64,000 bases of DNA from sequence record PQ478073.1. One strand, written 5' to 3'. How positions within the stretch are numbered: position 1 is the stretch's first letter; the number at the start of each line of letters is the position of its first letter. This stretch comes from a phage. Positions 2,736 through 61,301 of the stretch are shown one piece after another. Under the pieces are notes generated by a model that worked only from the letters and a program-made list of their open reading frames with translations, was not told the DNA's origin and ran no database searches. Made by a program: the position numbers and the translations under genes.

Positions 2736-2817
2736 TAAATATTTCCTCAGAATAGATTATATATGATGTATTTATTTTAGTTAAAAGAAAAGGCCAACCA
2801 TAGTTGACCTTATAATA

Positions 2818-13545: not shown

Positions 13546-13553
13546 ATATTTAT
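13546..13553 (-). promoter_or_regulatory. candidate late promoter (ATAAATAT) for the fibre operon
   Basis: Minus-strand ATAAATAT 36 nt upstream of ATG 13510, in a divergent intergenic region. Confidence 0.35.
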
Positions 13554-13581: not shown

Positions 13582-13588
13582 ATAAATA
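13582..13588 (+). promoter_or_regulatory. candidate late promoter (ATAAATA) for plus-strand island
   Basis: ATAAATA 33 nt upstream of ATG 13621. Confidence 0.3.
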
Positions 13589-21628: not shown

Positions 21629-24600
21629 TTATTTAACTAATAATATATTTTTAATATCATTACCACTAACTTGTAGACTATCAGTGTATACTGAAAGATC
21701 TATAGTGTAACTATTTTGTGTGTAACGTTTTAACATATCATAATTACCTAAATTAATTCCATTGAATGAATATGTAGTATTAAGTTTAAAATCATGTTCT
21801 GCACTATACATTACTCCACGGAGTAAATTATTTGCATTTCTAACTTCAACTTTTTCATATCCAATCGATATAATATCATTTATGTTCGCGGCAGAACCGG
21901 ATAAAACATTATTTCTAATACTATAAGGACTTATTGATTTAGGTTGAGAAACATAGGTTGTATTTTCTTCACTAATGGTTGTGATGTTAGTAACCGTACC
22001 ACCAACAACACCGATGTACATACCGTCAACCATTGGATAACCATAAACCCATATACCTTCATTATTTCTAAACGGTTGAATAACACTTGAATCATATTCA
22101 ATAACGTTGATTTCTAAACTATCAGTCATTTTAGTTCTTGCTAATTCACTAAGAACTCCCGCACCAGTAATTGGTAGGTTATAACCGTTGTCGATAGTAA
22201 TTCCATCAACATCAAATATTTCGTTAGAGATTATCCAAACGTCAACGTCATCTGGTGTTATTCCGTCATTGTACTTACCACCATTTAAAGTAGTATCGTA
22301 GAAAACATCATAATTAATTACATCAATTGTGTAATTTCTATTTTGTTCGTACAATTTGATACCATTCTTCACAAATTCTGGGTCAGCAAATGTTCTAACA
22401 CGAACAATGTTCAATGCAAGAGGCTGTACTGGCTCATTTTGTTGTGCAAGAGTGATATTATCATAACGGAGAACTGCACCAGTACTCTCATCAATCAATT
22501 CAATCGTTTCTTTACCTGTATTTCTTACAGTGAATAGGATCGGAGTTGTATTGTTTTTGATGTTAGATACACGCAAGATTGTTTCCCATGTGTGATTTTG
22601 ATATCTCACAAAATCTTCACCATCAGGAGTGAAAATCATCACCTTATCACCATCAGATAGGTCATTGTCAACTATTTCTGCTTCAGTTAAGCTATTAATA
22701 GATCTCACACGATAGAAATATTTTTCATCAAACTTCGATGTTGTTTTATTAATATCATTTTCAATCTTAGCATATGAAGGAATACTAACAATTGCTTCTG
22801 TATGTTTATATGGATTGATAATTGCCATACCTTCAGTTTGATATCTGCTGTTATCACGTAATTGTACAAGAGATACATTGTCAAACCCATATCCATCAAC
22901 TGTAAATCTAATTTGACCAACATCACGCCCAGAAGGGTTTATGTCAGATATATCCACAATATAAGGATCAACTTCATCATCTTTAACTTCCCATTTTATT
23001 GAAGAAGTTTGAGATTCTAATGCTAGGTTATCAAATGCATTCATATCATTGAAGTACTTAGCTTCAGTAATACTATCAAGTATATATTGATAATCTGAAT
23101 ACATTGGGTTATTTTGATCTAGTGGTAAATCATCTAGATTTATTTCAGCTAGTTCAATCATTTCACCATTTGTGATAAAATAATCTTCCATGAAATCATC
23201 AATACTTTGTTCATCAGGTATACTTTGATATACACCGTTAACATTTAAGTAAACATATTTTCGTGGAATCATTGTAATTGCATAGATATCAATTGGGGTT
23301 TTACTAAGAATCTCTTCAGCTTTTTCGTACTTATCAGTAGCGTCTTTGTCGAATAACCCTCTCATACCTGCTAATACGTGAATAGCATCAGTATAGAAAC
23401 GGGTATCACCACCGACTTCATCATAACGATAAACATATACACCATACTCAACTTCAAGTTTAACTTTTACTTCATAGTCTGATGCGTCAGGATTTTTATC
23501 TTTAATTAATGAAATATATTTTTGATACAGTTCACTGCTTATTTCAAAATATCCATAGTTATAATCATTACTAGAAGAAAAGCCTAATGGAAGTCTAGTA
23601 CTAGGATTGTCATTATAAGTAAGTCCACTAAATCCACAACCAACTTCATCGTGAATTTTCTCATCACTTATATCTTTATAAAGTTTCAAACGGTTTGCCA
23701 ATGTGTTATACTGAACATATTGTCTAAGGTCAGTAAACATATCGTTCTGCGTTGATTCTTTATAAACACGCTCCAATGTAGCAGTAAATTCATCAGTTGC
23801 TTCTAAATCTTCCGCATGGTCTTTATACCACTGGTTAACACCATATGCTGTTCCTAATGTTACATCCAATTCTGGATAGTAGATTTGCATTTGATAAGCA
23901 ATAAGAAGATCGAAAGTTTCTTCACTATATTCTGGGAAAGAATATATATAACGTTGTAATTCATAGTTACTAACAGCATCCTTTTCATTGGATTGATATT
24001 TGTTATTAACACTTACTAATTCATTTATGCTTGCTAAATCTGCATTTGGTTTACATTGAATGTTATCGTAATGCATAATAATATCAATTTCTTGGAATCT
24101 TCTATTTGGTGTAATGAAATCACTTGGTAGTGAACCTACCTGTTCCCATTTTTGGGTAATTTCATTAAATTGAGCGTACTCATAATCCCAAATATCTTTT
24201 TCAGTTTTGACCCAAGAACCGTCAACGAAAATATATCCATTAGGATCTAAATCATTACACAGACCTTTTATTAAATCATCATCAGATGTCTTTTGCTCTA
24301 TTTGTGAACGAATTTTAGTTCTATAAGGTTTAACTTCTTCAAAATATTCAACAATTTGATTAATCAAATTATCGTTTGAATAGTTTTGAACTAATGATTG
24401 TTCCAAACCAACAATATAGATATATGATGTTTTAAATACCCAATCCACAACACTTTGTTCAACATGTACATATTTGACCATATCAAAAACAATTTCGCTT
24501 TGATGTAAATCGAAAGAATTTTTGAGTAAAGCTAGTGCTTTACGAACGTTGATTTCACGATTGCTTAGTGAACCATTATCATTATGAACACTATAATCTG

Positions 24601-27600
24601 CGTAAAGCATATCATTGAGTTCAACTGTACTGTTTTCACGACCAATCGCTTTCCAATAAATTGAATCGCGTGATTGTGATTTAATATACAATGTCCAAAT
24701 GTTTTCACTATCGGTAACTCTGATAATATCTCCAACTTGGTAGTTTTTAGTATTAGCATCTTCTAAGCTTGACTCTTGTGTATAAGTCGTGTTACTATCA
24801 TACCCAACATCATACCAATCAGCATATGACCAGTACTGAGTCATGTCCAATGAAGTTCCTAGTGATTCAACATAATCAGATTGTTTAATCATTTTATGTT
24901 GTCCCTCACCTTTGTTCTCTAACGTTATAGTAACAACACTACCCGCGTTTGCTGGACTATTCATTAACTGAATATATCCATTTTCGTCGAAGTGAATAAA
25001 ATAAACAGCACTAGAAGTTAATGGATTTGGTAGATATCCACTAGTACTTAAAATAACAGCGTCATTTTCTTTAAATTTATCACTTTCAACTGCAATAACT
25101 AATTCATTATTGTAAGACAATACACGGAAAGAAACTTCATTCGGGTTAACTTCAGTGGTTTTAACATTAAACACATCTTCCATAACAACACTATTAGTGG
25201 TTATGTTTTGTGACCTATAATAATTATTAGCACTTTCTACAAAGTTTCTACGAGCTTCTATAACATTTTGGAACCAAGTTTTGTTTGAACCTAAACCGTT
25301 ATCAACATCTGGATATAATAAATTAATCACAGAACCTGATTCAGTTGTTTCTTGACCAATTAGTGAGTTCCACATTGAATCCCAAATTAGTGGGTTAAAG
25401 TTATAGCTGTCACCTTCTTTACATAGTTGATACTGGTCATGTTTAACAACTTCAGTACTATCCATGTAATAAGAAACAGTTAAAATACTGGTATCATCAT
25501 TCACTTTAAATTGCATATTACTAAGAATAAACGAGTTTTCATTGATTGGAGCGAACCAAGGAATGTTTAGCTGTGTTGGATCTTTAATAATACGAGCAAT
25601 GTCAGTACATGATTTTGTTCTGGTATGTAGTGGTGGTACATAAATTGTATCACGTACCCAGAAATAGTATTTTGTCACATAACTATCAGTTGAACTATCA
25701 TATTCCAAAAATGTACTATAATTATCTTCAAGTGCAGTTCCACTTGGTAGATACATAGTATTATTTTTGTTTTTCTTAGCAACATCTTTACAGTATTTGT
25801 CCCAGTTATATGGCTCAACTGGTGAACAAACCCACTCTAACACATCAATTGTACTATGTGGTAATAAACGACCCCAGTTGTAACGTTTGTATTCATTGGT
25901 TGCATCAATGTCAACATTACCGTCTGCGTCATAAATTGCACGAGTATAATCCAAATAAAATGCAGTGCTAGTGTTCCACCATACTTGACCAACTTTATCA
26001 GCACCCCAAGCCTGGATTAACTCTCCATTACTATTATACTGTGCAGGATCAACTGGTGAAGTATATGTTACGTTTTGCATAGCCGCACCTGGAATAACAC
26101 CATTAATTGGGTCATAAACGTTTAGATATAGCTCAGTAATGTTAGTACGTTCATCATATGTCGTTGGACGATCAAATAAAGTACTTTGTGGTGCTTTAAA
26201 ACTATATTTCTTGTCAATGTAAGCTTGACGTTCATCAGTACTGGCAAAACGTGATACATAACGATACAAACGTGGACGTGTATCTGGATCAGTAAATTCA
26301 ATATCAATAGAAGTGTCAAATGGAACTACCATAACTTTAGGATCAGAACCAGCAGTATAATATTGACTTTCTACTGTTAAAGTATCTGGCATAAAGTTAG
26401 TTTCATCAACAAAATAATAATAATCACCATCTTCAAGTGGTACATTATCAGTTAAAGTTACTTTACAAAATTGTTCAGCATACACATCGGTATTTTCAAT
26501 AGGTGTTATAGAAACCATTTGAACATTAGTATCAACCAATTCAAAAATGTTCCACAAACCATTACCGTCTTTAAACATCCACACAGATTCAGGATTTTCA
26601 CCTTTACCATTAGTATAAGTTATGCGGTCATTATATGCAGTACTGAAATCTTTTGTTGTGTACGATACTTCATCCAATGTTACTGGACCAATATCTGGAA
26701 GTTGGATATTTTCACTTCTTCCACTACGCATTGGGAATGAGAACTTACCATTTGGACGTGTAATCCAACGAGGATCTTTACCCTGCTCACCGAAGTATAC
26801 AATATGATTACCATTACCATTTGAAGTTGCATTTACATCAAAAGAAACCATTTGAGGTTGTTGTTTAAATTGGTCATTGATTAGTTTAAATTGAAGGTTT
26901 TTCTTACCATCAATATTACCATATGTACCAATTTTAAATGCCCATTCTTGTAATGCTTTATATTCATCAGTGTCATATGATTTAGAAACACGAAGGACAC
27001 GTTCTAAAACTTGGTTAGTACCTTTATCGTGAATGAATCCTTTATAGAAATCAACACGACTAACATCACTACTAATCATACGCTGTAGATAATCACGAGA
27101 TTGATAACCAATCAAATGGTTTGACAACTCTTGTAATTGTACATCACTTACTGGAGTTTCACTATCATAATAATGTTGGAAATCCGACACTAATTTTTCA
27201 AATGATGGTAGTGTTCCAGCTTCCAAGATAATAAATCCAGGAGCTTGTAGGCGACCAGTCCATGAACCAGTAATATATCCATACATTTTAATTAGTTCTT
27301 GAATAGAACCATATGTTGGCTGATAAATGTAATCACCAAAAATAGTTTTATCATCAAAAATAACAGCATGTTCATATGAACACAAACTTAAACGAATCAA
27401 TGCAATGCGTTTATTAGATTCTAAAGTTCTAACAGTGAAGATATTTCCAATACGAGAAGTTTCAATTTCATATTGGCGAATACCTTGGTTATTATCATCA
27501 AGTAATGACCATACACCACCATTATTTTGCGTAATAGATTGTACTGAACCAAAGTCTGCCCCAAATTTAGCGTTTGCAGCACTTGGGGTACAAGAAATAA

Positions 27601-30600
27601 ATTCACCAGTTACTAGAGAATTCTGACTCCAGATCACGAAATCTTTAGCAATAGTGTTCCAATCTTGTTGAGCACCACTATCATTTACATCTTCAAAAAT
27701 CCAACCATGTTCTTTAAGATATTCACCATATCCACAAATAAAAGTATAAACTTCTTGGTAACTATTGAAAACTTTACCATATTCAATTGAAGCTTCAGAC
27801 TTCCATTCATTATAATGAACAACATTACGGTTTTCCAATTTAAGAGTTACTTTTCTACCATTTTTTACGGGAAGTTTATATTTAAATTTAGCACCAACTA
27901 GATCATATCCATCAATCTGATATGCACTACCATTCCAAGTAATTTTGATCGCACTCATTTGCTCATCACGGATATTATTAGAACGAACAAGACCAATGGT
28001 TTGGTTTTCTTGTGAAATAAGACCGAAAGATTTAGCATTGAATGTTAGCTGATCTGCTTTAGTAAATCCTCCAATTTTATGACCAACATTTATATAAGAA
28101 GAACGAACTACATCCCCATACTTGGTGGTAATATTTTTATTTTGATACATCAAATGGTCACTTACAAACATTTGATAACCAATTGTTCTTGTGCTATTTT
28201 CACCATGAACTACTGTATTTTTATCAAAATTAATACGCTTACGTGTATCACCATAAAGGAATTGTGAACCATCAGTGAATACTTCTTTTAAGTTATCATT
28301 GCGGGTATCCCAGAAATAGTTAGCAAATTGTGCTGGTTTAGCTTTATACAAAAGCATCATTTGGTCATATGCAAACAATGTAGTGTTCATGTATGTAAAT
28401 TCCATGTCACCCATATCACCATATGTCCAAGGTTCTGCTCTATGATTTAAAGATCCAGACACTAAACCTAAAATTTCAGGTGCAATATATTCAACCACAC
28501 AAATATCAATACCAGAAGATGTTTTATTTCCAGTTTTTGTAATTTTGAATGGCTGTACACCAAATCTTTTATATTTGTCATATTGACCACGACGATCACC
28601 AAATAAAATAGTTCCAGTACTGCTATCGCCAATACTTCCGTCAATATCCCAAAGACCACTAGGAACTAAATCACCTTGCTCATTCATAACAAGTGCTTCA
28701 TATACATATACAACATCACTATCACGTTCACCAACTTGAACAGCCGTTGGTTCGTATTCTTGGTTCCACCAAGTTGGACGTTGTGTAAAGCCAAACATTT
28801 CCCACGGATGGGTAGCTGGGCGATATGTACCATATTGGTCAGTGTAAATGGCACGCCATGAACCACGTGCAGGAATTTCAGTACTTTGACCATTAACTAC
28901 ATAATAAGTGCCAGTATAGTTCCAAGTTCTCCAATTGTTAGGATCATAATCATGTGTACTATTACTGATACCATTAGTTGCGGTGAAGTTAATGTATCCA
29001 CGTAGTAATAATGTTTGTTTCTCTTCAGCACTATATTCAGTTTTAGTGAAATATGGTGTAGGGAAAAGGTCATCACTATTCAATACTGGTACGTAATCAA
29101 CATCTTTGAATTTATTATCAATACTATTAAAAATTCTATTTTCTAATTCATATACAACATCATCCATTTTATCAACACCATTGATAACACGGTATGCTTT
29201 GGAAATAATACCAGTATGACTGATGTTATAACAGCTTGGTTTACTACCAGCAGTGAGGAATGTCGCTTTTTCTGGTACATATGCTTGAAGAATACCTAAG
29301 AACTGTGGTGTTGGTGGTATAAATGCACGAATGAATCCAGAAGTACTTCCAACATTATCATAATAGAATGGGAATGAACTATCACGTCCCATATTAATAG
29401 TAGTTAAAATTGCATCAACAATGTTTGCAGCACTATTTTGTAAAAAGTCTGATGGATTTTCATCATACATACGAAGCATTTGTGTATTAAATTTATTAAT
29501 GAATCTAAAATATTCAGATTGCATAAACATAGTTGCTTCAAATAAATCAATATCTTCATTTGCAGTATGTGCCATCAATGGAAGCATAGATGCTTCATTT
29601 TGGATAATTTTAGTACCTACGCCATTATTAACCAATCCTTTAGCCAAACGTTCTTCATAGTCATTGAAATCATCAGAAGAACCACGTGTAATGTTCTTTT
29701 GAATAATATCCTGAAAATGTAAAGTGTAGTCACCTTGGTTAATGTATATAATATTAGAATTATATGGGTTATTTTGTAGGTTGATTGGAACTTCATAAGC
29801 ACCTAATTCTTTATCAGGTGTTACAGTACTGCTATAAGTTCTGATTTGAATAACAGAATCTTCATCCAATTCTACAGTACTATCTAGAGTGATGCTTTGT
29901 ACTTGACCTTTTGAAACATTTTTGGTATATTTGGACACATCAACACCATCAACCACAACTTCAATAATATCAGAATCATTATCTAAAACTTTTTGTGCCA
30001 ATTCGAATGTATGGTCATATTTTACAATCTGAACACCATCACCAGTAATTGGATGCCAATCTAGATAAGTTTCTCGGTCAGCTTTATAGTACTGATATGT
30101 TCTATCAACTTCAATAACATATGCATACATACCATCAACTGGTTCTTTAAAAACTTCCATATCATAAACAGTACTGAATACACGATACATATCAGTACGT
30201 TTGACTTGTGGAGTTTGTTTTACAAATTGTTTAGAGTACTCTTCTGAACGAACCCAATCGGTTTGAAGATTCATTTCATTATTTTCATCAATAATGTTAT
30301 AATAGTATAAACCATCAATTTCAACTTCTTTTCCAAGATGGTCATAGGTATAACGTTGGGATTGTAAAAAGTTTTCATAAATGTAATAATTATAATCACC
30401 AAGTTCAATGTTATATCCATATACACTATCAGTTGCATAGTTGTAATTTATTTTAAAACCAAACAACTCTGAACCTTTAAAGTTACTTGATGGATATGTA
30501 GTACTGTTGTCAAGTTTGATACCATTACGATCATAAAGTTGGAATTTAGGGAATACGTTAACACTAGTTTTTGATTGTGCACGAACCCACAAAGAACCAT

Positions 30601-31600
30601 TCCAGTACATAGAACTATTACCATACTCATTACCTTTAGTGATTAGAACAACATCACCATCTTGAGGTTCACCACTTGGGCGTGATTCGGTTTCTTCTTC
30701 TGGATCTAGTGCTAAACCATAAACACGAGTACCATCTTGCATTTTTTTCACATATACATTATAAATTCTATTGTTTTCACCATTGTTACCAATACTGGTG
30801 AATAGAATACGCATTCCATCTTGCGGAATAATACCATCAATACGTATACCACTATTAATATCTTTTTGAACGATATCTTCAGGTTTAATAATATCAGAGA
30901 ACAGATCAACAGTTCCACGGAATTTTGTACCGTAGTTAATTAGCTCAATATTTTTATTATATTCAATAATTGGTGCACGTGCACGAATAAAACGTGAATC
31001 TTGCATTAATTCTTCAGTTAATATTGAGCCATCTTCTAATGTTTCACCTAAAGTATACCAAAAGTTTTGTAGTGACCATGTATTACCATTAAGTGCTCCG
31101 CGTTCCATTACAATGTAATCAGGTGAAGTAATATTATAAGAGTTTTTAGTATCCCAAAGATATGAGCTAAAATTGTTCATTTTATTTGGGTTAATAGCTG
31201 GAGTCCATGCATAAAACTTACCGTTGAACAAACGGCTTTCATTATCGGTTAGTGCTCCATAATGATTCATGTATCCAACTAGATCATCATAAAATTGAAT
31301 TGAACGAATTGTCGAATCATCATTTTTTGAGACGTAAGCAGTGGACAACTGATAAAGTTGACGTGCTACAGTACTTTCATGTAAGAAGATATTACCAGCA
31401 GCGGCAGGAGAACCCATATCACCAATATAGCCGTCAACTAATTCGTTTTCAGCCGGATTAAACCATTGTTGAATAACATCATCACTGACTTTTTGAATAT
31501 CTTCTAAGCCTTGCATCCACTCAGGCAATCTTTTAATAAAAAGCTTCTTCTGTACTGCTTCAGCCATCTGTGTAGGTTGAAACTTAAAATTATTAGTCAT
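21629..31600 (-). CDS. giant baseplate-associated structural protein (3323 aa from ATG 31600; 3333 aa from ATG 31630)
   Basis: Single uninterrupted ORF of ~10 kb, last gene of the baseplate operon after the gp25-like and gp6-like genes (the gp7 position in T4/P2-type order). ATG 31600 has a GGAG SD; the track ATG at 31630 has none. Confidence 0.6.
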   Translation of the reverse strand: MTNNFKFQPTQMAEAVQKKLFIKRLPEWMQGLEDIQKVSDDVIQQWFNPAENELVDGYIGDMGSPAAAGNIFLHESTVARQLYQLSTAYVSKNDDSTIRSIQFYDDLVGYMNHYGALTDNESRLFNGKFYAWTPAINPNKMNNFSSYLWDTKNSYNITSPDYIVMERGALNGNTWSLQNFWYTLGETLEDGSILTEELMQDSRFIRARAPIIEYNKNIELINYGTKFRGTVDLFSDIIKPEDIVQKDINSGIRIDGIIPQDGMRILFTSIGNNGENNRIYNVYVKKMQDGTRVYGLALDPEEETESRPSGEPQDGDVVLITKGNEYGNSSMYWNGSLWVRAQSKTSVNVFPKFQLYDRNGIKLDNSTTYPSSNFKGSELFGFKINYNYATDSVYGYNIELGDYNYYIYENFLQSQRYTYDHLGKEVEIDGLYYYNIIDENNEMNLQTDWVRSEEYSKQFVKQTPQVKRTDMYRVFSTVYDMEVFKEPVDGMYAYVIEVDRTYQYYKADRETYLDWHPITGDGVQIVKYDHTFELAQKVLDNDSDIIEVVVDGVDVSKYTKNVSKGQVQSITLDSTVELDEDSVIQIRTYSSTVTPDKELGAYEVPINLQNNPYNSNIIYINQGDYTLHFQDIIQKNITRGSSDDFNDYEERLAKGLVNNGVGTKIIQNEASMLPLMAHTANEDIDLFEATMFMQSEYFRFINKFNTQMLRMYDENPSDFLQNSAANIVDAILTTINMGRDSSFPFYYDNVGSTSGFIRAFIPPTPQFLGILQAYVPEKATFLTAGSKPSCYNISHTGIISKAYRVINGVDKMDDVVYELENRIFNSIDNKFKDVDYVPVLNSDDLFPTPYFTKTEYSAEEKQTLLLRGYINFTATNGISNSTHDYDPNNWRTWNYTGTYYVVNGQSTEIPARGSWRAIYTDQYGTYRPATHPWEMFGFTQRPTWWNQEYEPTAVQVGERDSDVVYVYEALVMNEQGDLVPSGLWDIDGSIGDSSTGTILFGDRRGQYDKYKRFGVQPFKITKTGNKTSSGIDICVVEYIAPEILGLVSGSLNHRAEPWTYGDMGDMEFTYMNTTLFAYDQMMLLYKAKPAQFANYFWDTRNDNLKEVFTDGSQFLYGDTRKRINFDKNTVVHGENSTRTIGYQMFVSDHLMYQNKNITTKYGDVVRSSYINVGHKIGGFTKADQLTFNAKSFGLISQENQTIGLVRSNNIRDEQMSAIKITWNGSAYQIDGYDLVGAKFKYKLPVKNGRKVTLKLENRNVVHYNEWKSEASIEYGKVFNSYQEVYTFICGYGEYLKEHGWIFEDVNDSGAQQDWNTIAKDFVIWSQNSLVTGEFISCTPSAANAKFGADFGSVQSITQNNGGVWSLLDDNNQGIRQYEIETSRIGNIFTVRTLESNKRIALIRLSLCSYEHAVIFDDKTIFGDYIYQPTYGSIQELIKMYGYITGSWTGRLQAPGFIILEAGTLPSFEKLVSDFQHYYDSETPVSDVQLQELSNHLIGYQSRDYLQRMISSDVSRVDFYKGFIHDKGTNQVLERVLRVSKSYDTDEYKALQEWAFKIGTYGNIDGKKNLQFKLINDQFKQQPQMVSFDVNATSNGNGNHIVYFGEQGKDPRWITRPNGKFSFPMRSGRSENIQLPDIGPVTLDEVSYTTKDFSTAYNDRITYTNGKGENPESVWMFKDGNGLWNIFELVDTNVQMVSITPIENTDVYAEQFCKVTLTDNVPLEDGDYYYFVDETNFMPDTLTVESQYYTAGSDPKVMVVPFDTSIDIEFTDPDTRPRLYRYVSRFASTDERQAYIDKKYSFKAPQSTLFDRPTTYDERTNITELYLNVYDPINGVIPGAAMQNVTYTSPVDPAQYNSNGELIQAWGADKVGQVWWNTSTAFYLDYTRAIYDADGNVDIDATNEYKRYNWGRLLPHSTIDVLEWVCSPVEPYNWDKYCKDVAKKNKNNTMYLPSGTALEDNYSTFLEYDSSTDSYVTKYYFWVRDTIYVPPLHTRTKSCTDIARIIKDPTQLNIPWFAPINENSFILSNMQFKVNDDTSILTVSYYMDSTEVVKHDQYQLCKEGDSYNFNPLIWDSMWNSLIGQETTESGSVINLLYPDVDNGLGSNKTWFQNVIEARRNFVESANNYYRSQNITTNSVVMEDVFNVKTTEVNPNEVSFRVLSYNNELVIAVESDKFKENDAVILSTSGYLPNPLTSSAVYFIHFDENGYIQLMNSPANAGSVVTITLENKGEGQHKMIKQSDYVESLGTSLDMTQYWSYADWYDVGYDSNTTYTQESSLEDANTKNYQVGDIIRVTDSENIWTLYIKSQSRDSIYWKAIGRENSTVELNDMLYADYSVHNDNGSLSNREINVRKALALLKNSFDLHQSEIVFDMVKYVHVEQSVVDWVFKTSYIYIVGLEQSLVQNYSNDNLINQIVEYFEEVKPYRTKIRSQIEQKTSDDDLIKGLCNDLDPNGYIFVDGSWVKTEKDIWDYEYAQFNEITQKWEQVGSLPSDFITPNRRFQEIDIIMHYDNIQCKPNADLASINELVSVNNKYQSNEKDAVSNYELQRYIYSFPEYSEETFDLLIAYQMQIYYPELDVTLGTAYGVNQWYKDHAEDLEATDEFTATLERVYKESTQNDMFTDLRQYVQYNTLANRLKLYKDISDEKIHDEVGCGFSGLTYNDNPSTRLPLGFSSSNDYNYGYFEISSELYQKYISLIKDKNPDASDYEVKVKLEVEYGVYVYRYDEVGGDTRFYTDAIHVLAGMRGLFDKDATDKYEKAEEILSKTPIDIYAITMIPRKYVYLNVNGVYQSIPDEQSIDDFMEDYFITNGEMIELAEINLDDLPLDQNNPMYSDYQYILDSITEAKYFNDMNAFDNLALESQTSSIKWEVKDDEVDPYIVDISDINPSGRDVGQIRFTVDGYGFDNVSLVQLRDNSRYQTEGMAIINPYKHTEAIVSIPSYAKIENDINKTTSKFDEKYFYRVRSINSLTEAEIVDNDLSDGDKVMIFTPDGEDFVRYQNHTWETILRVSNIKNNTTPILFTVRNTGKETIELIDESTGAVLRYDNITLAQQNEPVQPLALNIVRVRTFADPEFVKNGIKLYEQNRNYTIDVINYDVFYDTTLNGGKYNDGITPDDVDVWIISNEIFDVDGITIDNGYNLPITGAGVLSELARTKMTDSLEINVIEYDSSVIQPFRNNEGIWVYGYPMVDGMYIGVVGGTVTNITTISEENTTYVSQPKSISPYSIRNNVLSGSAANINDIISIGYEKVEVRNANNLLRGVMYSAEHDFKLNTTYSFNGINLGNYDMLKRYTQNSYTIDLSVYTDSLQVSGNDIKNILLVK

Positions 31601-31636
31601 TTTTGGACTCCATATAATTCGTTCATTCATTTGATT

Positions 31637-36157: not shown

Positions 36158-36165
36158 TATTTATA
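36158..36165 (-). promoter_or_regulatory. candidate late promoter (TATAAATA) for lysozyme gene
   Basis: Exact minus-strand TATAAATA 17 nt upstream of ATG 36141. Confidence 0.4.
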
Positions 36166-41115: not shown

Positions 41116-41430
41116 TTAGCCTATGTTTCGAGTACCATTAAGATAATTCTGTACTCTTTGATTTGCTGGTATTCTAATTGTTACTCCACTTTTAAAATTA
41201 TATATAGGATCTTCTCCTAGTATGTCTGGATTTAACAATGCGAAAATATAATATAAGCGTTCATTACCATACATTTCGTATGCTAAACGCCAAGGTTGAT
41301 ATTCATATTTCAATGGGATCTCATAAAAATCATCAGTATCAGCCGGAACAATATCACGTGGTAAATTATACCCAAGATACCATGTTTGTTTCACCTTAGC
41401 GTAAGGTGAGTATTGACTATAGTTGGACAT
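41116..41430 (-). CDS. LysM-like small baseplate protein (104 aa)
   Basis: C-terminal ...YYIFALLNPDILGEDPIYNFKSGVTIRIP resembles the LysM-type motif of tail protein X / gp53-class proteins. Start overlaps the upstream stop (TAATG). Confidence 0.5.
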   Translation of the reverse strand: MSNYSQYSPYAKVKQTWYLGYNLPRDIVPADTDDFYEIPLKYEYQPWRLAYEMYGNERLYYIFALLNPDILGEDPIYNFKSGVTIRIPANQRVQNYLNGTRNIG

Positions 41431-42161
41431 TAAATGAATCCTCCTTTACGTAATAGTTCACCACGTTTGAATGCATTGAGGTTGAACGTTTTAGTCATAT
41501 AATCCGATGTTGGTTGTTCTTCAAGTTGTAACATAACTGAGATTTTTTGTGGAACCCAAACTTCATCTTGTGGGTTCATATATCCAGTACTTCTAAGTTG
41601 TTCGAAGAATTTTCTACTATCCATGTCGGATAAATTAAAAGTACTATCGCTACTATTCAACGGAACTTGAATATAAGAAACATCATTTGGGTAAGTAAAA
41701 TTATAAGATTTTAAAATAACAGGAATATCATTATATGTATAACGACCATATCCACTTAGAAGTAAGATTGGTGGTGGTGCACCTGCAATTGCGAGTTCGG
41801 GGTTATTAGCCGAAGCAGCTTGTCTACCAAAATCCATCAACGAAACAGAACGTATAAAATGAACACATGCCAACGCATACATAGCTTCTGCTGCTGTATT
41901 CGCATAAAATTCACCCTGAATCGTGAAAACTGTATTAGTAGTGTTCTTATAGTTGTTATAGTTACTGTTAGTATGTATAGGGGACTGTGTTTCATACTGA
42001 ATTGACCTTTGTTCAGTAATTGTTGGTGTTACAGTCCAAACCAACCCATTAGTTGGACGCAGAAACGAAAGTAGAGTTGGTTCGGAGCTATCTCCAAAAT
42101 CACCATATACATAGTTAGCACCTGCGGCTTTAGGTCGTAATCGAATTCTACGATCAATCAT
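41430..42161 (-). CDS. hypothetical baseplate-operon protein (243 aa from ATG 42161)
   Basis: Track start 42251 is TTG inside the divergent promoter region; ATG 42161 has a GGAG SD. Product unknown. Confidence 0.45.
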   Translation of the reverse strand: MIDRRIRLRPKAAGANYVYGDFGDSSEPTLLSFLRPTNGLVWTVTPTITEQRSIQYETQSPIHTNSNYNNYKNTTNTVFTIQGEFYANTAAEAMYALACVHFIRSVSLMDFGRQAASANNPELAIAGAPPPILLLSGYGRYTYNDIPVILKSYNFTYPNDVSYIQVPLNSSDSTFNLSDMDSRKFFEQLRSTGYMNPQDEVWVPQKISVMLQLEEQPTSDYMTKTFNLNAFKRGELLRKGGFI

Positions 42162-42207
42162 CTTTTTGATTCTCCATAATAAGGGAACATTTGATGTATT
42201 TATACGT

Positions 42208-42235
42208 GGGACAAACTGCTTTTTGGTGCTATAAT
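42208..42235 (+). promoter_or_regulatory. sigma70-type promoter with extended -10, driving the gp55-like gene
   Basis: -35 GGGACA (42208-42213), 16-nt spacer, TGcTATAAT (42227-42235). Confidence 0.5.
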
Positions 42236-42292
42236 AACATTGATGGTACAAGGATTGTACCTATTGGATTTAAACATGGAGAGTAAAATACA

Positions 42293-43132
42293 ATGACAAA
42301 TAGACCAAAGCGTAAAAAGTATCTCAATAATGCTGATTTACTTCGTGAAATACAAAAAAGTAAAATTTCATATTGCTGGTTATTAGACAAATCATATAGT
42401 ATGTATGATTATATTGTTTTTCATGAGTCAGAAATTACTGCTGAGTTACTAGAAAAAGCTAAGGCAGCACGAATTAAACGACTGAACAATGAAATGCTTG
42501 ATAGTATTCGTGAAAAGGAAAATATGAGTGCTAAAAAAGCTAAAGAATATGCAGATGAACACAATTTAGTTATCACTGACGTTCCAATTGATGAAGTTGT
42601 TATTCGTGTTATTACAGATGAACATATTCCACCAGATACTAGAGTTAACTTTGAACCATTCAAGCATTATATTGTAGATAATGAAGGTATTCTCTATGAA
42701 GTTTGTCGTTCTCACTGGAAAGGCGACCTTGAAACTGGTGAATTCAGTACTGTTCATGGTAAAATTACAAATGAACTTGGGAAGATGTTCATTAAACTTG
42801 CAGAGGAAATCTCACACAAATCTAATTACAGAAACTATACATACTTAGATGAAATGATGGGTGATGCAAGAATACAATTAGTTAAAAACGCACTTCTCTT
42901 TAAAGAGAGCATTCTTTATAAAAAAGATAAACCAGCAGTTCAGCTAAATCCTTTCTCTTACTATACATCATTCGTAAACAATAGTTTTCGTTCTATATTG
43001 AATAGTGAGAAAAATGTTCGAAATATACGTGATGATTTACTTGAAATGCATGGCTTTACGCCATCACATACACGTCAAATTGAAATTGAATTGAACATGA
43101 TTGAAAGGAAAAATGAAGATGGCTCTGTTTGA
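42293..43132 (+). CDS. 55: late-transcription sigma factor, gp55-like (279 aa)
   Basis: N-terminus KRKKYLNNADLLREIQKSK matches T4 gp55 (KPKYNYVNNKELLQAI); lies directly upstream of gp47/gp46 as in T4; ~90 aa longer than T4 gp55. Confidence 0.65.
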   Translation: MTNRPKRKKYLNNADLLREIQKSKISYCWLLDKSYSMYDYIVFHESEITAELLEKAKAARIKRLNNEMLDSIREKENMSAKKAKEYADEHNLVITDVPIDEVVIRVITDEHIPPDTRVNFEPFKHYIVDNEGILYEVCRSHWKGDLETGEFSTVHGKITNELGKMFIKLAEEISHKSNYRNYTYLDEMMGDARIQLVKNALLFKESILYKKDKPAVQLNPFSYYTSFVNNSFRSILNSEKNVRNIRDDLLEMHGFTPSHTRQIEIELNMIERKNEDGSV

Positions 43133-44150
43133 TAAAGCAATTACATTCACTGATATTCATTTAGGTTTAAAGAATAACAGCAAGCAACACAATGAAGATT
43201 GTTTAAACTTCATTAAATTCATGATTGAGGTAGCTAAAAAAAATAATATCAAAGTTTGTGTTTTTATGGGAGATTATTTTCATAATAGAAGTAATATCAA
43301 TATCCAAACACTAAACTATGGTTTACAAATTCTTCAATTATTAAATGATAATTTTGAAAAAGTATATTTTTTAGTAGGCAACCATGATATGTATCATAAA
43401 AACAAACGTGATATAACAAGTATCAATATGGCTCAAGTTTATGAAAATATAGAATTCATTAATGAAATTACAACATTTGATGATTGTACTTTCATTCCAT
43501 TTATGATTGAAGATGAATATAAGTTGTTACCTCAACTAAAAAGTAAGTATGTTTTTGGTCACTTAGAGTTACCAGGTTACTTGCTTAACAAGATGGTAGA
43601 AATGCCTGATCATGGAAAAGAAACAGAAGGTTCTTTTGGTGGTTGTGAGTATGTTTTTAGTGGACATTTTCATAAAAGGCAGTCAAAAACAACTTCAAAA
43701 GGAACTCGTGTAGTTTATACTGGTAATTGTTTTCCACATAATTTTTCCGATACATGGGATGATGCAAGAGGTGTAATGATCCTTGAACATGGTAAAGAAC
43801 CTATTTTCAAATCATGGGAACATGCACCAAAATATAGAACATTTACACTTTCAGAATTGTTAACTGATCCTGGTTATTATCTTCAAGATAATACAATATC
43901 AAAAGTTCAAGTTGATATATCAATAACAACAGATGAGATTAGTTTTATTCGTGATACATTTACTAAACTTTACAACATTAGAGAGTTTAATGTTGTAACG
44001 AGCAAGCAAAGTATCGCAGAATTAATTGAAGATGGTGTTAGTTTTGAAAGTACTGAATCAGTTGATGAGATTGTGTTGCAGCAAATTATGGAAATTGACT
44101 CACCCATGTTTGATAAAAATCTTCTAATCCAAATTTACAGATCGTTATAA
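43119..44150 (+). CDS. 47: recombination/repair nuclease subunit, gp47 / Mre11-SbcD-like (343 aa from ATG 43119)
   Basis: Calcineurin-like phosphoesterase motifs: TDIHLG, GDYFH, LVGNHDMYH, SGHFH. Track start 43101 is TTG. Confidence 0.88.
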   Translation: MALFDKAITFTDIHLGLKNNSKQHNEDCLNFIKFMIEVAKKNNIKVCVFMGDYFHNRSNINIQTLNYGLQILQLLNDNFEKVYFLVGNHDMYHKNKRDITSINMAQVYENIEFINEITTFDDCTFIPFMIEDEYKLLPQLKSKYVFGHLELPGYLLNKMVEMPDHGKETEGSFGGCEYVFSGHFHKRQSKTTSKGTRVVYTGNCFPHNFSDTWDDARGVMILEHGKEPIFKSWEHAPKYRTFTLSELLTDPGYYLQDNTISKVQVDISITTDEISFIRDTFTKLYNIREFNVVTSKQSIAELIEDGVSFESTESVDEIVLQQIMEIDSPMFDKNLLIQIYRSL

Positions 44151-44158
44151 GGGACTAT

Positions 44159-46306
44159 ATGCTAAACATTACACGTATATCTATGAGGAACTTCTTTTCA
44201 TTTGGTAATGCACCACAATCAATTGAATTGAATGGTTCTGACATTTCATTAGTACTGGGTCAAAATAATGATGCAGTTATTGAAGGTGGTGACAGCACCG
44301 GACGTCGAAATGGTGTCGGGAAAAGTGCTATTATTCAAGGATTAGTTTTTGGATTATTTGGGAAAAGTATTGGTAATGATATTAAAATTCCTAACTTAGT
44401 CAATAAAACTAATGGTAAAAATTGTGAAGTAGTTGTAGAGTTTGAAAAAGATGGTGTACAATATCTGGTTGAACGTGGGAGAAGTCCCACGTATTTCAAT
44501 TTTGTTACTTTAGGGAAAGATAATAAAATTGAAGATGAATCAAGGGGAGAAAAGAAAGACACACAAGAAGATTTGAATGAAATTCTTGGTATATCTCAAT
44601 TATTATTTGAACATATTGTAGTACTGAATGCTAACGTTGAACCTTTCTTAGCTTTATCCACACAAAAACAACGTGATATGATAGAAGAACTTCTTGGAAT
44701 AACACAGTTGACGGAAAAAGCTGAAATGCTAAAGGAGATGTATAAGGATACTAAACGTTTAGCCGAACAAGAAAAGTTCAAAAATGAAACTGTAGCTGCA
44801 AGTAATGAACGTATTCAAAAAAGTATTGAGACACTACAAGAACAGGCAAACCAGTTTGAAATTGATAAAAATAATAGAGTATCTAAGTTAAATGAAGAGT
44901 TGAATATATATAAAACTTTAGACTTTAATGACCTCTATGAAGCTGCTGATATAAAAGAGAAAGCTCTTATTCATAACGCAAAGCGTGGGGAAATCGAACG
45001 CCGTGTACAAGAGTTGGCTTTAAAATTTGATGCATATGACCGTGAACTTGAAAGATCTAAAAGAGCATTAAATCTAAGCATTGATAAGCTAAAAACTATT
45101 GATATTAGTGCAGAATTGGAAAATCATAATGAGTTGGAGATATGGAAACAGTTAGAGGGTATTCTAAAAGAGAATAATAACCAAAAACGTTTCAAAGAAC
45201 AAAAACTAAACTCACTAAAAATAGCTTTAAAAGGATATGAATGTTCAATTAATGCTGAAATTGACAAATTATCAACAGTTGAAAACAGCAAATGTCCACT
45301 TTGTATGTCTGAATTAGAACATAACGAACATACTTCTTCAATTAAAGACAAAATCCAAAGTACTATTAATGATCTTCAAGCTAAAATTGATAGTTCTTCT
45401 TCTGAAATTGAAACATTACTTCAAGAAATTGATAGTATTGAGATTTTTGATATGCCACCTAAGCCTGTGACATATTATAATACACTTTCAGAAGCACAAA
45501 TGCATGAACATAAGCTTCAAGAATTGGTCAGAAAGAGTGAAGAAGAACAAATAAACATCTATGCAAATGAACTTATGTCATCATATGATGAACTTAACTC
45601 ATATGAACTAATGGAAGTTCCAGATACATTAAACAAATATGAAGTTAAAGAGTTAGAAATGACTGTAAATTCATTATCACAGCAATTAGATCGTGAATTG
45701 AAGACTACTAACACATTTATTAGCCAAATTAATACCCTGAAGACTGATTCTTTAGTACCAATCGATTATAGCGACTATAATAATCTTGATAAAATGTCAA
45801 ATCACCAAGATTTCTTGGTTAAATTACTTTTAAACAAGGATTCTTATGTCCGTAAACGTATTATTGAGCAAAATATCTCATATTTGAATACACGACTTCA
45901 GTACTATATCGATATGTGCGGTTCTGAGCATAATGTTGTGTTTTTGAATGATTTGAGTGTTGAAATTGAGAAGAGTGGACAGTACTTTGACTATAAACAG
46001 CTTAGTAGAGGTGAGCGTACAAGGGTAAACATCGCATTATCTTGTGCTTTCCGTGATACATATGAGTCATTATACCAAAGTATTAATATTCTTATCATTG
46101 ATGAGATGATTGACCAAGGTCTTGACTCAAGTGGTGTTCTACGTGTGTGGTCTATCTTCCAAGATATGGCTGCTGTACGTGGTAAGAACGTTTATGCTAT
46201 TTCCCACAGAGAAGAGTTACTATCTAAGACTGAAAAAATCCTCAAAGTTGTTAAAGAGGACGGTTTCAGTACTGTTGAATATGCAACCCTTGACGATGTT
46301 TTCTAA
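44159..46306 (+). CDS. 46: recombination/repair ATPase subunit, gp46 / Rad50-SbcC-like (715 aa)
   Basis: Walker A GRRNGVGKS; long central coiled coil with a CPLC zinc hook-like motif; signature LSRGERTRVNIAL and Walker B LIIDEMID. Confidence 0.88.
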   Translation: MLNITRISMRNFFSFGNAPQSIELNGSDISLVLGQNNDAVIEGGDSTGRRNGVGKSAIIQGLVFGLFGKSIGNDIKIPNLVNKTNGKNCEVVVEFEKDGVQYLVERGRSPTYFNFVTLGKDNKIEDESRGEKKDTQEDLNEILGISQLLFEHIVVLNANVEPFLALSTQKQRDMIEELLGITQLTEKAEMLKEMYKDTKRLAEQEKFKNETVAASNERIQKSIETLQEQANQFEIDKNNRVSKLNEELNIYKTLDFNDLYEAADIKEKALIHNAKRGEIERRVQELALKFDAYDRELERSKRALNLSIDKLKTIDISAELENHNELEIWKQLEGILKENNNQKRFKEQKLNSLKIALKGYECSINAEIDKLSTVENSKCPLCMSELEHNEHTSSIKDKIQSTINDLQAKIDSSSSEIETLLQEIDSIEIFDMPPKPVTYYNTLSEAQMHEHKLQELVRKSEEEQINIYANELMSSYDELNSYELMEVPDTLNKYEVKELEMTVNSLSQQLDRELKTTNTFISQINTLKTDSLVPIDYSDYNNLDKMSNHQDFLVKLLLNKDSYVRKRIIEQNISYLNTRLQYYIDMCGSEHNVVFLNDLSVEIEKSGQYFDYKQLSRGERTRVNIALSCAFRDTYESLYQSINILIIDEMIDQGLDSSGVLRVWSIFQDMAAVRGKNVYAISHREELLSKTEKILKVVKEDGFSTVEYATLDDVF

Positions 46307-46846: not shown

Positions 46847-46854
46847 TATTTATA
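46847..46854 (-). promoter_or_regulatory. candidate late promoter (TATAAATA) for Endo VII-like gene
   Basis: Exact minus-strand TATAAATA ~30 nt upstream of ATG 46816. Confidence 0.4.
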
Positions 46855-48698: not shown

Positions 48699-48789
48699 TT
48701 TATTAAATCTCCATGTAATAAATGTGTTTTAGTATTTATAAGACTAAAAAAGATTAAATTAAACTAATTTTTATATTCTCTATAGTTTC

Positions 48790-48796
48790 ATAAATA
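48790..48796 (+). promoter_or_regulatory. candidate late promoter (ATAAATA) for head-module first gene
   Basis: CATAAATAT ~33 nt upstream of ATG 48829; a TATAAT hexamer also present at 48801-48806. Confidence 0.3.
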
Positions 48797-54690: not shown

Positions 54691-54721
54691 TATAAATATC
54701 TGTATGTTGAAGTACAGATAT
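54691..54721 (+). promoter_or_regulatory. candidate late promoter TATAAATA overlapped by a 9-bp palindrome
   Basis: TATAAATA 54691-54698; perfect inverted repeat ATATCTGTA-N8-TACAGATAT (54696-54704, 54713-54721) spanning the -10 element and the expected start site. Confidence 0.4.
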
Positions 54722-55899: not shown

Positions 55900-55917
55900 T
55901 ATAAATAATATCATACT
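55900..55917 (+). promoter_or_regulatory. late promoter TATAAATA plus conserved 16-mer, for major capsid gene
   Basis: Exact TATAAATA (55900-55907) 45 nt upstream of ATG 55953; the same TAAATAATATCATACT block occurs at 53138-53153. Confidence 0.55.
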
Positions 55918-59097: not shown

Positions 59098-59104
59098 ATA
59101 AATA
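59098..59104 (+). promoter_or_regulatory. candidate late promoter (AATAAATAT) for fibre gene
   Basis: ATAAATA ~32 nt upstream of ATG 59136. Confidence 0.3.
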
Positions 59105-59135: not shown

Positions 59136-60746
59136 ATGAGCATAAGTTTTAATAACCCATTGGATACAATGACCAGTACTGGTGCTAATGGATCTTTAGA
59201 ACTAATAGTGCTTGGTGGTACACCAACTAACCCAAGACCTATTCGTTTTAATTCGTCATCAGTTATTATACCAGTACAAACGTTACCTACTGGTGAACAA
59301 GGTGCAATGGTTTTTGATCGAAGCGAATTAGTTTTGAAGTATCATAACGGTACAAGTTGGATTGCAGTATATGATACTGATACTATTTTGGAACCAATTA
59401 GAATTTCATTAGATGAAGTAAACAGAAAATTAAATTTAAAAGTAGAAAGTGTAACATACAGTAGCAGTACTGTTCCTAGTGCAAGTATTAGTGGAACAAA
59501 CTTAAACATTGTATTCCCTACTGCTTCTAGTGGTGGTTCTGGACCAACTGGTCTTTACACTTCACTTAAACCTGGTGCTATTACACAATATTCATTGACT
59601 TCTGGTCAATCTGTTGCTAGTATACGTGAACAAATGTCAGGGCAATCGAATGGACAAAGTGGACGAAACGGTTCACAAGGTGCTCCGTGGAAAACGTCTG
59701 ACGGTTGGTGTTTTGCTGATGGTATGTGGTGGCAATGGGAGGGGGAAAATGGTACAATTACCAAACAAGTACCAAACCTTAACCAAAACGCGTATTTAAA
59801 AGGTATAACAACATCAGGTGTAACTAAAACTGATAGTGTTATTGGTAGTAGTGGTAACATTAGTGGAACTGTATTGAGTGTTGCCCAGTTACCATCACAC
59901 TCATTTAGTTTTAGTGGAACCACTGGTGCTGCTGGTCGTCATGGTCATAGTCAAGCACTAAAAGGTATGGACCGTAGTGGTCTAAATGCGTTAACTTCAA
60001 GTAATGATAACGGTATACCAACTGTAATCAATAACATTAACGAAGCACCAGACCACATTCACTCATTTAGTGGAAACACTAACACACTTGGTGGAAACCA
60101 ACCACACTATCATGGTATTAGCAACATTGATGTGGAACACTTTAACGTTGCATACCTATATAACATTGCTGAATCTAACGTCGCATTGAGTGAAAAAGTT
60201 GCAAACACTCGTTATGTACTAAAAACTGGTGATACAATGACTGGTTCATTGACTATTGCAAACAGTGCGTCAATTAAGTCAAATGATACATCATTAGTTC
60301 TATATTTCCGTAACGCAAGCGGTGGTGAGCGTGCGGCAGTGTATCATAACTCTTCAAATAATACATTGAGATTACGTTCCGGTGGAGCAGAAGTTACTGT
60401 AAACTCTTCTGGTACTTTAGCTGCTCCATCATTAACTGTTTCTAACAACTCAGCTACTGTTGGTGGTAAAAATATTGTTCGTTCAATTAACGGTACTGCT
60501 GCTGATGCTAGTGGCAACGTTACTTTGCAAATTAGTACTAATAACGTACAAAGTATTCGTTTGAGTGCACGTATTGAAACAAGTAAAATACCTGATTCTT
60601 CATGGACATATACACCAGAAGGTGCATTTATGGATGGCGTATGGATTTCTGTTAATGGTAGTTCAGGCACTCACTTAGAACGAATTAGTTATCGCTATGT
60701 TCAAATGCAAATAAATGGTAACTGGGAAACAGTACGTCAACAATAA
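59136..60746 (+). CDS. tail fibre protein with His-x-His metal-site-like motifs (536 aa)
   Basis: S/T/G/N-rich; HSFSFSGTTGAAGRHGHS and HIHSFSGNTNTLGGNQPHYHG resemble the HxH ion-binding repeats of T4 gp12/gp37 receptor-binding tips; followed by a Tfa-type chaperone gene. Confidence 0.6.
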   Translation: MSISFNNPLDTMTSTGANGSLELIVLGGTPTNPRPIRFNSSSVIIPVQTLPTGEQGAMVFDRSELVLKYHNGTSWIAVYDTDTILEPIRISLDEVNRKLNLKVESVTYSSSTVPSASISGTNLNIVFPTASSGGSGPTGLYTSLKPGAITQYSLTSGQSVASIREQMSGQSNGQSGRNGSQGAPWKTSDGWCFADGMWWQWEGENGTITKQVPNLNQNAYLKGITTSGVTKTDSVIGSSGNISGTVLSVAQLPSHSFSFSGTTGAAGRHGHSQALKGMDRSGLNALTSSNDNGIPTVINNINEAPDHIHSFSGNTNTLGGNQPHYHGISNIDVEHFNVAYLYNIAESNVALSEKVANTRYVLKTGDTMTGSLTIANSASIKSNDTSLVLYFRNASGGERAAVYHNSSNNTLRLRSGGAEVTVNSSGTLAAPSLTVSNNSATVGGKNIVRSINGTAADASGNVTLQISTNNVQSIRLSARIETSKIPDSSWTYTPEGAFMDGVWISVNGSSGTHLERISYRYVQMQINGNWETVRQQ

Positions 60747-60756
60747 GGAATGTGTA

Positions 60757-61272
60757 ATGCAACTAACAAATTTTAAGATGTATGAAAAAGAAGGTGGTAA
60801 TCCTAATTCTTTGTATATGATGTCCGATGAAGGTATGGATTGGTATGAATCTCGTGAATTGTTTGACATTAATAAAGCAAAATTTATGTATGATATTAAC
60901 GGTTTAATTGTTTCAGCATCATATAACATTTATGATCTAGTACCTTTAGGTTTTAGTGTTTCTGAAATTGAATATGATGGTGATATTAACAAACTTTATG
61001 GTATGGTTTACGATGGAAATACTATTCATGACTATATTGAAACTAAAGAAGAAAAAATTGAACGCCTAAAAAATGAATTATCTAATTTGAAATACATTGC
61101 AATTCAAGAACTTGGACACTTAAAAACTGCTATGGATCTTGAGTTAGCAACTGATGAAGAAGCTGTATTGTTTGTAAAATTGAAAGATTATGTAACGCAA
61201 TTGAATTCAATCAAACCAGCAGACATGATTAAGAAAACATTTTCATTTCCAGTTAAACCGGAAAAAAAATGA
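60757..61272 (+). CDS. tail fibre assembly chaperone, Tfa/gp38-like (171 aa from ATG 60757)
   Basis: LKTAMDLELATDEEAVLFVKLKDYVTQLNSIKPAD resembles the Tfa C-terminal motif (...DLGMATDEE...WKKYRVLLNRVD...APD). Track start 60715 lies inside the fibre gene; ATG 60757 follows an AAGGA SD. Confidence 0.6.
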   Translation: MQLTNFKMYEKEGGNPNSLYMMSDEGMDWYESRELFDINKAKFMYDINGLIVSASYNIYDLVPLGFSVSEIEYDGDINKLYGMVYDGNTIHDYIETKEEKIERLKNELSNLKYIAIQELGHLKTAMDLELATDEEAVLFVKLKDYVTQLNSIKPADMIKKTFSFPVKPEKK

Positions 61273-61301
61273 GACAACACGTAAAGACGTGATACAATTA
61301 A

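Follow-up and report, generated by a model that had tools for sequence, protein, structure and literature searches.

Late transcription in bacteriophage T4 needs, besides the sigma factor gp55, the beta-flap-binding protein gp33 and the gp45 sliding clamp. The structure of T4 gp55 (PDB 7D7C/7D7D), a protein of 185 residues (NC_000866), ends at residue 153 after helix H5, and residues 175-185 (SLDFLYEAND) constitute a sliding-clamp-binding motif that is dispensable for RNA polymerase (RNAP) binding and for basal transcription (PMC7892883). Within the folded part of the protein, N13 contacts the -9 adenine and is functionally essential, N13, F86, Y97, T99 and R114 serve the pockets for the -10-like element and the template strand, and E70, D74 and E77 bind the beta' clamp helices (PMC7892883). 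Here we describe a longer relative of this protein, the late sigma factor encoded at positions 42293..43132 (+) of a 64,000-nucleotide stretch of phage DNA (sequence record PQ478073.1; the whole stretch is referred to below as the window). As judged from sequence comparisons and predicted structures, a conserved domain of ~130 residues is inserted between the sigma-R2 helices H1 and H2 of this sigma factor, at a point where T4 gp55 has a linker of 14 residues.

The gene is a single open reading frame (ORF) of 279 codons plus stop in the ORF listing of the window, and its ATG start is well defined, since a GGAGAG ribosome-binding site (42278-42283) lies 9 nt 5' of it and an in-frame TAA (42284-42286) lies three codons upstream. 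The product is thus 94 residues longer than T4 gp55, in agreement with the excess of about 90 residues given in an earlier note on this DNA, which had called it a gp55-like late sigma factor and had asked whether the similarity might be too weak for that name. It is not, as the similarity lies far above chance. The protein matches PHROG 12791 ('sigma factor for late transcription', profile length 286) end to end with an E-value of 3.4e-154, and is a full-length member of that family, showing no difference from its other members (121Q, PBECO4, phAPEC6, SHEFM2K, CBB_244 and the PA5oct homologue). PHROG 234, the T4 gp55 family, matches it with an E-value of 8.4e-18, and BLASTP against T4 gp55 itself gives an E-value of 2e-4 at 24% identity, the range of identity to the T4 protein being only 24-26%. 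Finally, a profile built from an alignment of 30 long-form proteins, when compared by hhalign with a profile of 25 T4-type proteins, yields an E-value of 1e-13. Pfam and NCBIfam held no model that matched either the window protein or T4 gp55, and neither phmmer against PDB sequences nor Foldseek against the PDB returned a match revealing the gp55 relationship of the window protein.

The same ORF is 100% identical at the nucleotide level in Escherichia phages SHEFM2K, vB_Eco_slurp01, phAPEC6, SP27 and JP4, and 97-99% identical in PBECO4 and 121Q. These phages are Rak2-like jumbo myoviruses of ~350 kb, of the genus Asteriusvirus (PMC7247149). In several of the deposited records the coding sequence already carries the label 'sigma factor for late transcription' or 'RNA polymerase sigma factor', and the literature on Rak2-like phages calls the protein 'gp55-like' (e.g. 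PMC5259590). On these sequence comparisons, the window protein is a genuine member of the T4 gp55 family and, in a Rak2-like jumbo coliphage, the sigma factor for the late genes.

To locate the gp55 homology within the longer protein, we combined profile comparisons, residue conservation and a full-length AlphaFold2 model built on the 30-sequence alignment (predicted local distance difference test score, pLDDT, 88.5; predicted template modelling score, pTM, 0.79). Residues 1-25 (42293..42367, +) form a basic N-terminal segment containing a helix (13-25) that is homologous to H1 of T4 gp55 by H1 profile, conserved residues and hhalign. They are followed by the inserted acidic alpha/beta domain, residues 26-157 (42368..42763, +), and then by the remainder of the sigma-R2 core, residues 158-276 (42764..43120, +), with H2 at 160-174, H3 at 185-198, H4 at 220-252 and H5 at 259-276. 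H5 pairs with the long H4 in a helix-loop-helix, and the five-helix gp55 fold, a sigma-R2-like bundle of H1-H4 plus H5, is present. The H3-H4 loop (residues 206-218; 42908..42946, +) is 9-13 residues longer than in T4 gp55 by alignment gaps, a feature of the enterobacterial clade, the loop being shorter in distant relatives; and in the alignments the protein ends directly after H5, with three last residues and the stop codon at 43121..43132 (+). The difference in length from T4 gp55 can accordingly be budgeted as +118 residues at the H1-H2 linker (T4 residues 26-39 versus 26-157), +9 to +13 in the H3-H4 loop and -32 at the C-terminus.

The assignment of H1 to the extreme N-terminus carries this architecture. 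Window residues ~6-25, 'KKYLNNADLLREIQKSK', match the T4 gp55 helix H1 'KYNYVNNKELLQAIIDWK', with Y10, N13 and K24 at the same numbering; these three positions are invariant in the H1 of the 25 T4-type sequences and at least 90% conserved in the long-form alignment. A T4-type H1 profile scores up to 15 bits on other long forms and matches all 29 of the 29 sequences that possess an N-terminus. When residues 29-155 were excised, hhalign aligned T4 residues 6-121, H1 included, with a score of 115.1, and the E-value improved to 1e-18. The earlier note had placed the gp55 match in the N-terminal region, and this holds for H1, although it is incomplete, as the main part of the match (H2-H5) lies at 158-276. 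Two of the checks it had proposed, alignment with gp55 homologues and structure prediction, favour an insert between H1 and H2.

The residues through which T4 gp55 works are largely shared. T4 N13, E70, D74, F86, Y97, T99 and R114 correspond to window N13, E187, D191, F203, Y223, T225 and K240, all of them conserved or invariant in the 30-sequence family alignment, so that promoter-pocket and RNAP-contact residues are common to both proteins. Two positions differ, T4 E77 aligning to I194 and H95 to F221, and these are not conserved. Region 4 of the sigma-70 family, responsible for -35 recognition and beta-flap binding, and region 3 are not present in the window protein.

The insert itself, when modelled alone from the family alignment (residues 26-158), yields a pLDDT of 93.7 and a pTM of 0.83, and on the strength of this model would be an autonomously folding domain. 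Short strands come first in the predicted fold; a long helical hairpin follows (50-76, 80-89), and then a beta-sheet at 104-150, with strands at 104-107, 123-128 and 134-139 and further short ones. It is acidic (net charge -9, isoelectric point, pI, 5.1), as it is in most relatives, in marked distinction to the strongly basic H1 (pI 10.6), and most of its invariant and near-invariant positions are concentrated in three motifs, RVxTxEHIP, NFxPFKHY and RSHWKG. Comparison with solved structures gave no convincing match to the insert and no fold similarity to gp33 or to sigma region 4. We then searched an insert-only profile against 1.84 billion representative proteins, and recovered 414 clusters (at 50% identity) with E <= 1e-3, 275 of them with E <= 1e-10. 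In most of the 150 matches listed, the insert starts at about residue 20-30 of a protein of 240-330 residues, right after H1; a minority start later, and about one third cover the C-terminal part of the profile only. Among the matches listed, none places the insert outside a gp55-like protein. Two short matches considered as possible stand-alone copies, P0250 (177 residues) and P0282 (141 residues), are contig-end truncations that begin with H1. By these searches the domain is specific to the gp55-like sigma family, and it was not taken over from an adjoining gene that survives on its own.

The suggestion in the earlier note that the extra sequence may provide an additional interaction surface is plausible. 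Because the domain is acidic, autonomous and never free-standing, we favour, tentatively and with considerable doubt, a protein-protein contact with RNAP or with a phage factor over a role as a DNA-binding module; the family identity and the architecture follow directly from the comparisons above, and the role of the insert we infer. We also considered whether the insert might be a fused gp33, and discarded the idea: T4 gp33 is an all-helical five-helix protein (PMC7892883), the insert is alpha/beta, and no similarity between them was found. The insert also has a parallel in the non-conserved region (NCR) of primary (group 1) sigma factors, E. coli sigma-70 among them, which sits at the same topological position, between sigma regions 1.2 and 2.1. 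Both are acidic, but the window insert is alpha/beta whereas the NCR is all-helical, and the likeness is one of position, not ancestry.

Some metagenomic homologues are much longer, at 445-980 residues. We examined ten of these as possible fusions with the downstream nuclease and rejected that reading: three match intein or LAGLIDADG models, and the remaining seven match nothing in Pfam. In the three (P0253, P0328 and P0359) the similarity to these intein or homing-endonuclease models is weak, the models being Intein_splicing, matched below its curated cut-off, and LAGLIDADG_3. In P0253 the extra sequence follows directly on 'NWRGY|C', within the loop between H2 and H3 and immediately ahead of the helix for beta' clamp contact, a point equivalent to Y182/T183 of the window protein (nt ~42836-42841). 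An intein within a phage sigma factor would be unusual.

At the other end of the protein, the window sigma factor has only three residues beyond H5 (...IERKNEDGSV), like its enterobacterial relatives, and thus has no counterpart of T4 residues 154-185, the linker and clamp-binding motif that are found as a tail in 25/25 of the T4-type sequences. Since the motif is dispensable in T4 for RNAP binding and basal transcription, its absence is no argument against descent from the gp55 family. Distant insert-bearing members keep acidic and aromatic tails that resemble clamp-binding motifs (DQFLTYDDE, DDLFPFDD, GILTYND, IFDFGD, LVDFDDW), and these add 15-40 C-terminal residues in P0093, P0096, P0103, P0104, P0109-P0113, P0119 and P0120, a set that includes Vibrio phage 2.275.O. 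The enterobacterial clade, the window included, has either lost such a tail or never possessed one; and as insert and tail co-occur in the distant members, one does not simply replace the other.

Two other explanations of the extra length have to be weighed against an internal insert. One is that it is an artefact, arising from a frameshift, from read-through or from the merging of gp55 and an adjacent ORF by the gene caller, as the earlier note had in part suspected. The unusual length could by itself be read in this way, and some close relatives (98% identity; e.g. P0001) give a still longer call of 312 residues. The latter arises because the TAA just 5' of the ATG is absent in those genomes; the first 33 residues of the 312-residue calls would come from the promoter and leader region, and the calls are themselves probably gene-calling artefacts. 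The 279-residue protein, by contrast, recurs at 99-100% nucleotide identity in 10 or more independent phage genomes, with an unbroken reading frame and no stop splitting it in any of them. A homologue search returned 326 proteins from many independent contigs and from named phages of Escherichia, Salmonella, Klebsiella, Erwinia, Yersinia, Xanthomonas and Vibrio, to which tblastn adds the Pseudomonas PA5oct homologue at 40% identity. The best 120 of the 326 are nearly all 274-330 residues long, cover 90-100% of the query and keep both length and segment order at identities down to 41%, the exceptions being a few short fragments on sub-kilobase contigs and one 245-residue gene call. This in-frame conservation across hundreds of homologues speaks against a sequencing frameshift, and the extra sequence is not a fused neighbour, because it is internal and flanked on both sides by gp55 segments, H1 on one side and H2 on the other. 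With a confident model for the full-length protein in addition, an artefact can be practically discounted.

The other explanation is that residues 1-123 are a separate domain in front of a complete gp55, in which residues 124-139 would be the equivalent of T4 H1. This is what the automated alignments say at face value: PHROG 234 positions 8-135 align to residues 125-262, BLASTP pairs T4 7-134 with 124-248, full-profile hhalign pairs T4 8-122 with 124-248, and tblastn matches of cyanophage gp55 likewise begin at 124, with W142-K143 falling opposite T4 W23-K24. These alignments count against the architecture proposed here, and three further points should be set beside them: helix 13-25 is presumed, rather than seen, to pack within the sigma-R2 bundle; the insert is basic in two distant members (P0119 and P0120), so that its acidity is not universal; and a literature search gave no transcription start sites, RNAP binding or mutants for the window sigma factor. 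The contiguous alignments start at ~124, however, because local aligners cannot open a gap of 130 residues, and once this is allowed for the N-terminal helix is the better H1 by each comparison. The T4-type H1 profile scores 7.7 bits on the window protein at residues 6-20 and -2.3 bits at 125-131, and reciprocally a profile of the long-form N-terminus scores up to 11.5 bits on T4-type N-termini, as opposed to 1.4 bits or less for the 120-146 segment. N130, the partner of T4 N13 in the contiguous alignment, lacks conservation across the family; N13 of the N-terminal helix is conserved. Removal of residues 1-123 lowers the hhalign score to 93.9, against 115.1 after excision of the insert, with H1 lost from the alignment. 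Lastly, the high-confidence prediction for residues 123-139 is a beta-hairpin rather than a helix, in the full-length and insert-alone models alike. We therefore regard an N-terminal extension as quite improbable and retain the internal insert; the placement of the homology at 124-248 by BLAST and hhalign mis-assigns H1, and the present analysis corrects it.

A different question is whether the window protein, with its insert and without a clamp-binding tail, might be self-sufficient, the insert replacing gp33, the gp45 tether or both and late transcription being freed from the clamp; it might, for instance, grip the beta flap or upstream DNA. For the T4 partners we searched a relative of 97% identity (OR844650, 352 kb), using its 1,932 stop-to-stop ORFs of at least 50 residues. 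phmmer with T4 gp33, gp45 and gp62 gave nothing better than an E-value of 0.2, which leaves divergent homologues possible; of all the T4 proteins used as queries, these three and others, only gp44 (E 1e-21) and gp43 (E 1e-43) had homologues. PHROG scans of nine ORFs around the clamp loader revealed no clamp, and a regular-expression scan for clamp-binding-like C-termini gave mostly non-coding-frame noise. The best gp33 match, a 148-residue ORF ending in IDLFTAYN (E 1.4), was dropped as its sequence did not look helical by eye. In published work, the CBB paper reports neither gp33 nor gp45 (PMC5259590), and the phAPEC6 and fEgEco12 annotations name a clamp loader and no clamp. The partners present in T4 are thus not detectable by sequence in the Rak2-like lineage, as a self-sufficient factor would lead one to expect, although the absence of gp33 and gp45 from these phages is unproven. 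Group 2 jumbo phages do have gp33 orthologues and PCNA-type clamps, according to Iyer et al. 2021. Moreover, OR844650 encodes its gp44-like clamp loader at 60304-61299 (-) and its gp43-like DNA polymerase at 111213-114242 (-), 1,010 residues from stop to stop; the latter ends in ...SVNNGFFTW, and the aromatic NNGFFTW is a possible clamp-binding tail. Because a clamp loader is present together with a gp43 homologue bearing such a tail, a divergent clamp probably exists in the lineage. When we consider also that distant insert-bearing members retain tails resembling clamp-binding motifs, that an acidic insert is a poor fit to DNA binding, and that its fold resembles neither gp33 nor sigma region 4, a self-sufficient factor seems unlikely.

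The window also holds a set of candidate targets for the sigma factor. The motif ATAAATA is depleted overall, with 18 copies observed against 36.8 +/- 5.9 expected, and yet 16 of the 18 lie within 70 nt 5' of a start codon on the same strand (binomial P 2.7e-25), and a seventeenth precedes a small annotated ORF. The distance from motif to gene start is 6-67 nt, in sense orientation, for 16-17 of the 18 copies, and most of the genes behind them encode baseplate, portal, protease and other virion proteins. Examples are found at 2769-2775(-), 13547-13553(-) with 13582-13588(+), 36158-36164(-), 46847-46853(-), 48733-48739(-) with 48790-48796(+), 54692-54698(+), 55901-55907(+) and 59098-59104(+). 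The set looks like a late-promoter regulon with counter-selection of the motif elsewhere. Two divergent pairs sit in shared intergenic regions, and a T-rich tract is seen 7-12 nt 5' of the motif. Close to the sigma gene, a match to the T4-late-type promoter motif TATAAATA lies at 42197..42204 (-), 35 nt 5' of a divergent virion-protein gene (41430..42161); it belongs to the 16 ATAAATA sites just described and is presumed to be a target of the window sigma factor. In the relatives CBB and GAP32, structural genes have been reported to follow the same motif, which was likened to the T4 late promoter (PMC5259590). T4 and the window thus share a similar A-rich promoter element without a -35 element, TATAAATA in T4 and ATAAATA in the window. 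One ORF of 3,333 residues, 21629..31630 (-), annotated 'virion structural protein' in SHEFM2K, is preceded by a terminator-like GC hairpin with a T-run, and its ATAAATA stands only 6 nt from the start codon.

No ATAAATA motif precedes the sigma gene itself. Upstream of it lies instead a sigma-70-type promoter-like site with an extended -10 element (GGGACA-16 nt-TGcTATAAT) at 42208..42235 (+), matching the consensus at 10/12 positions plus the TG, which would give pre-late expression of the gene by host sigma-70 and so fits a factor made before the late genes are turned on. Between this site and the ribosome-binding site, a 7-bp hairpin, reading GGTACAAGGATTGTACC then TATTGGATTT, occupies 42245..42261 (+). 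It is the only terminator-like match in the 1.5 kb scanned, and could be an attenuator or an element of stability or processing. Downstream, the 3' end of the sigma gene is overlapped by a gene for a gp47/SbcD-like (Mre11) nuclease at 43113..44150 (+), with a gp46/SbcC-like (Rad50-like) gene next at 44159..46306, so that the T4 gene order 55-47-46, which in T4 itself reads 55-(a-gt...)-47-46, is preserved in the window, a further point in favour of the gp55 identity. Baseplate and virion genes lie upstream of the sigma gene on the opposite strand, and no tRNA genes were found in the window.

The best explanation of the whole, and in our view a very probable one, is that the window protein is a late promoter-specificity factor of the gp55 family with an insert between H1 and H2 and without the clamp-binding tail. 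The factor would probably be expressed from the host sigma-70-type promoter. Helix H3, to judge by the conserved E187 and D191, would dock onto the beta' clamp helices of E. coli core RNAP; the pocket residues N13, F203, Y223 and T225, by their conservation, would recognise the A-rich -10-like element ATAAATA; and the H4-H5 helix-loop-helix, with the conserved K240, would hold the template strand. The outcome would be a switch of transcription to the virion genes, during which the insert may touch RNAP, on the outside of the beta' clamp, or a phage partner.

The sigma gene itself is already known, being annotated in many deposited genomes of Rak2-like jumbo phages. Neither the inserted domain nor the absence of the tail was found described in the papers searched, which speak of the family only as 'gp55-like'. 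The form is widespread, with 414 clusters at 50% identity, and its architecture appears to be undescribed. The finding is a clean architectural difference within a widespread family, and not a surprise in kind. Even so, a well-folded domain without a solved counterpart here occupies the site of the lineage-specific insertion of cellular primary sigma factors, in a clade that lacks the tail tying T4 late transcription to the replication clamp. It is a speculative idea, and one we hold to be rather unlikely, that the insert is an unrecognised regulatory module, through which the late switch would operate without gp33/gp45 clamp coupling or would be coupled to replication or another signal via a different partner. 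If true, gp55-type late transcription would fall into two mechanistic classes, the second of them spread over hundreds of jumbo-phage lineages. And should the insert prove to bind RNAP or a phage factor, it would reveal how jumbo phages dependent on the host RNAP time their late genes without the clamp mechanism of T4.

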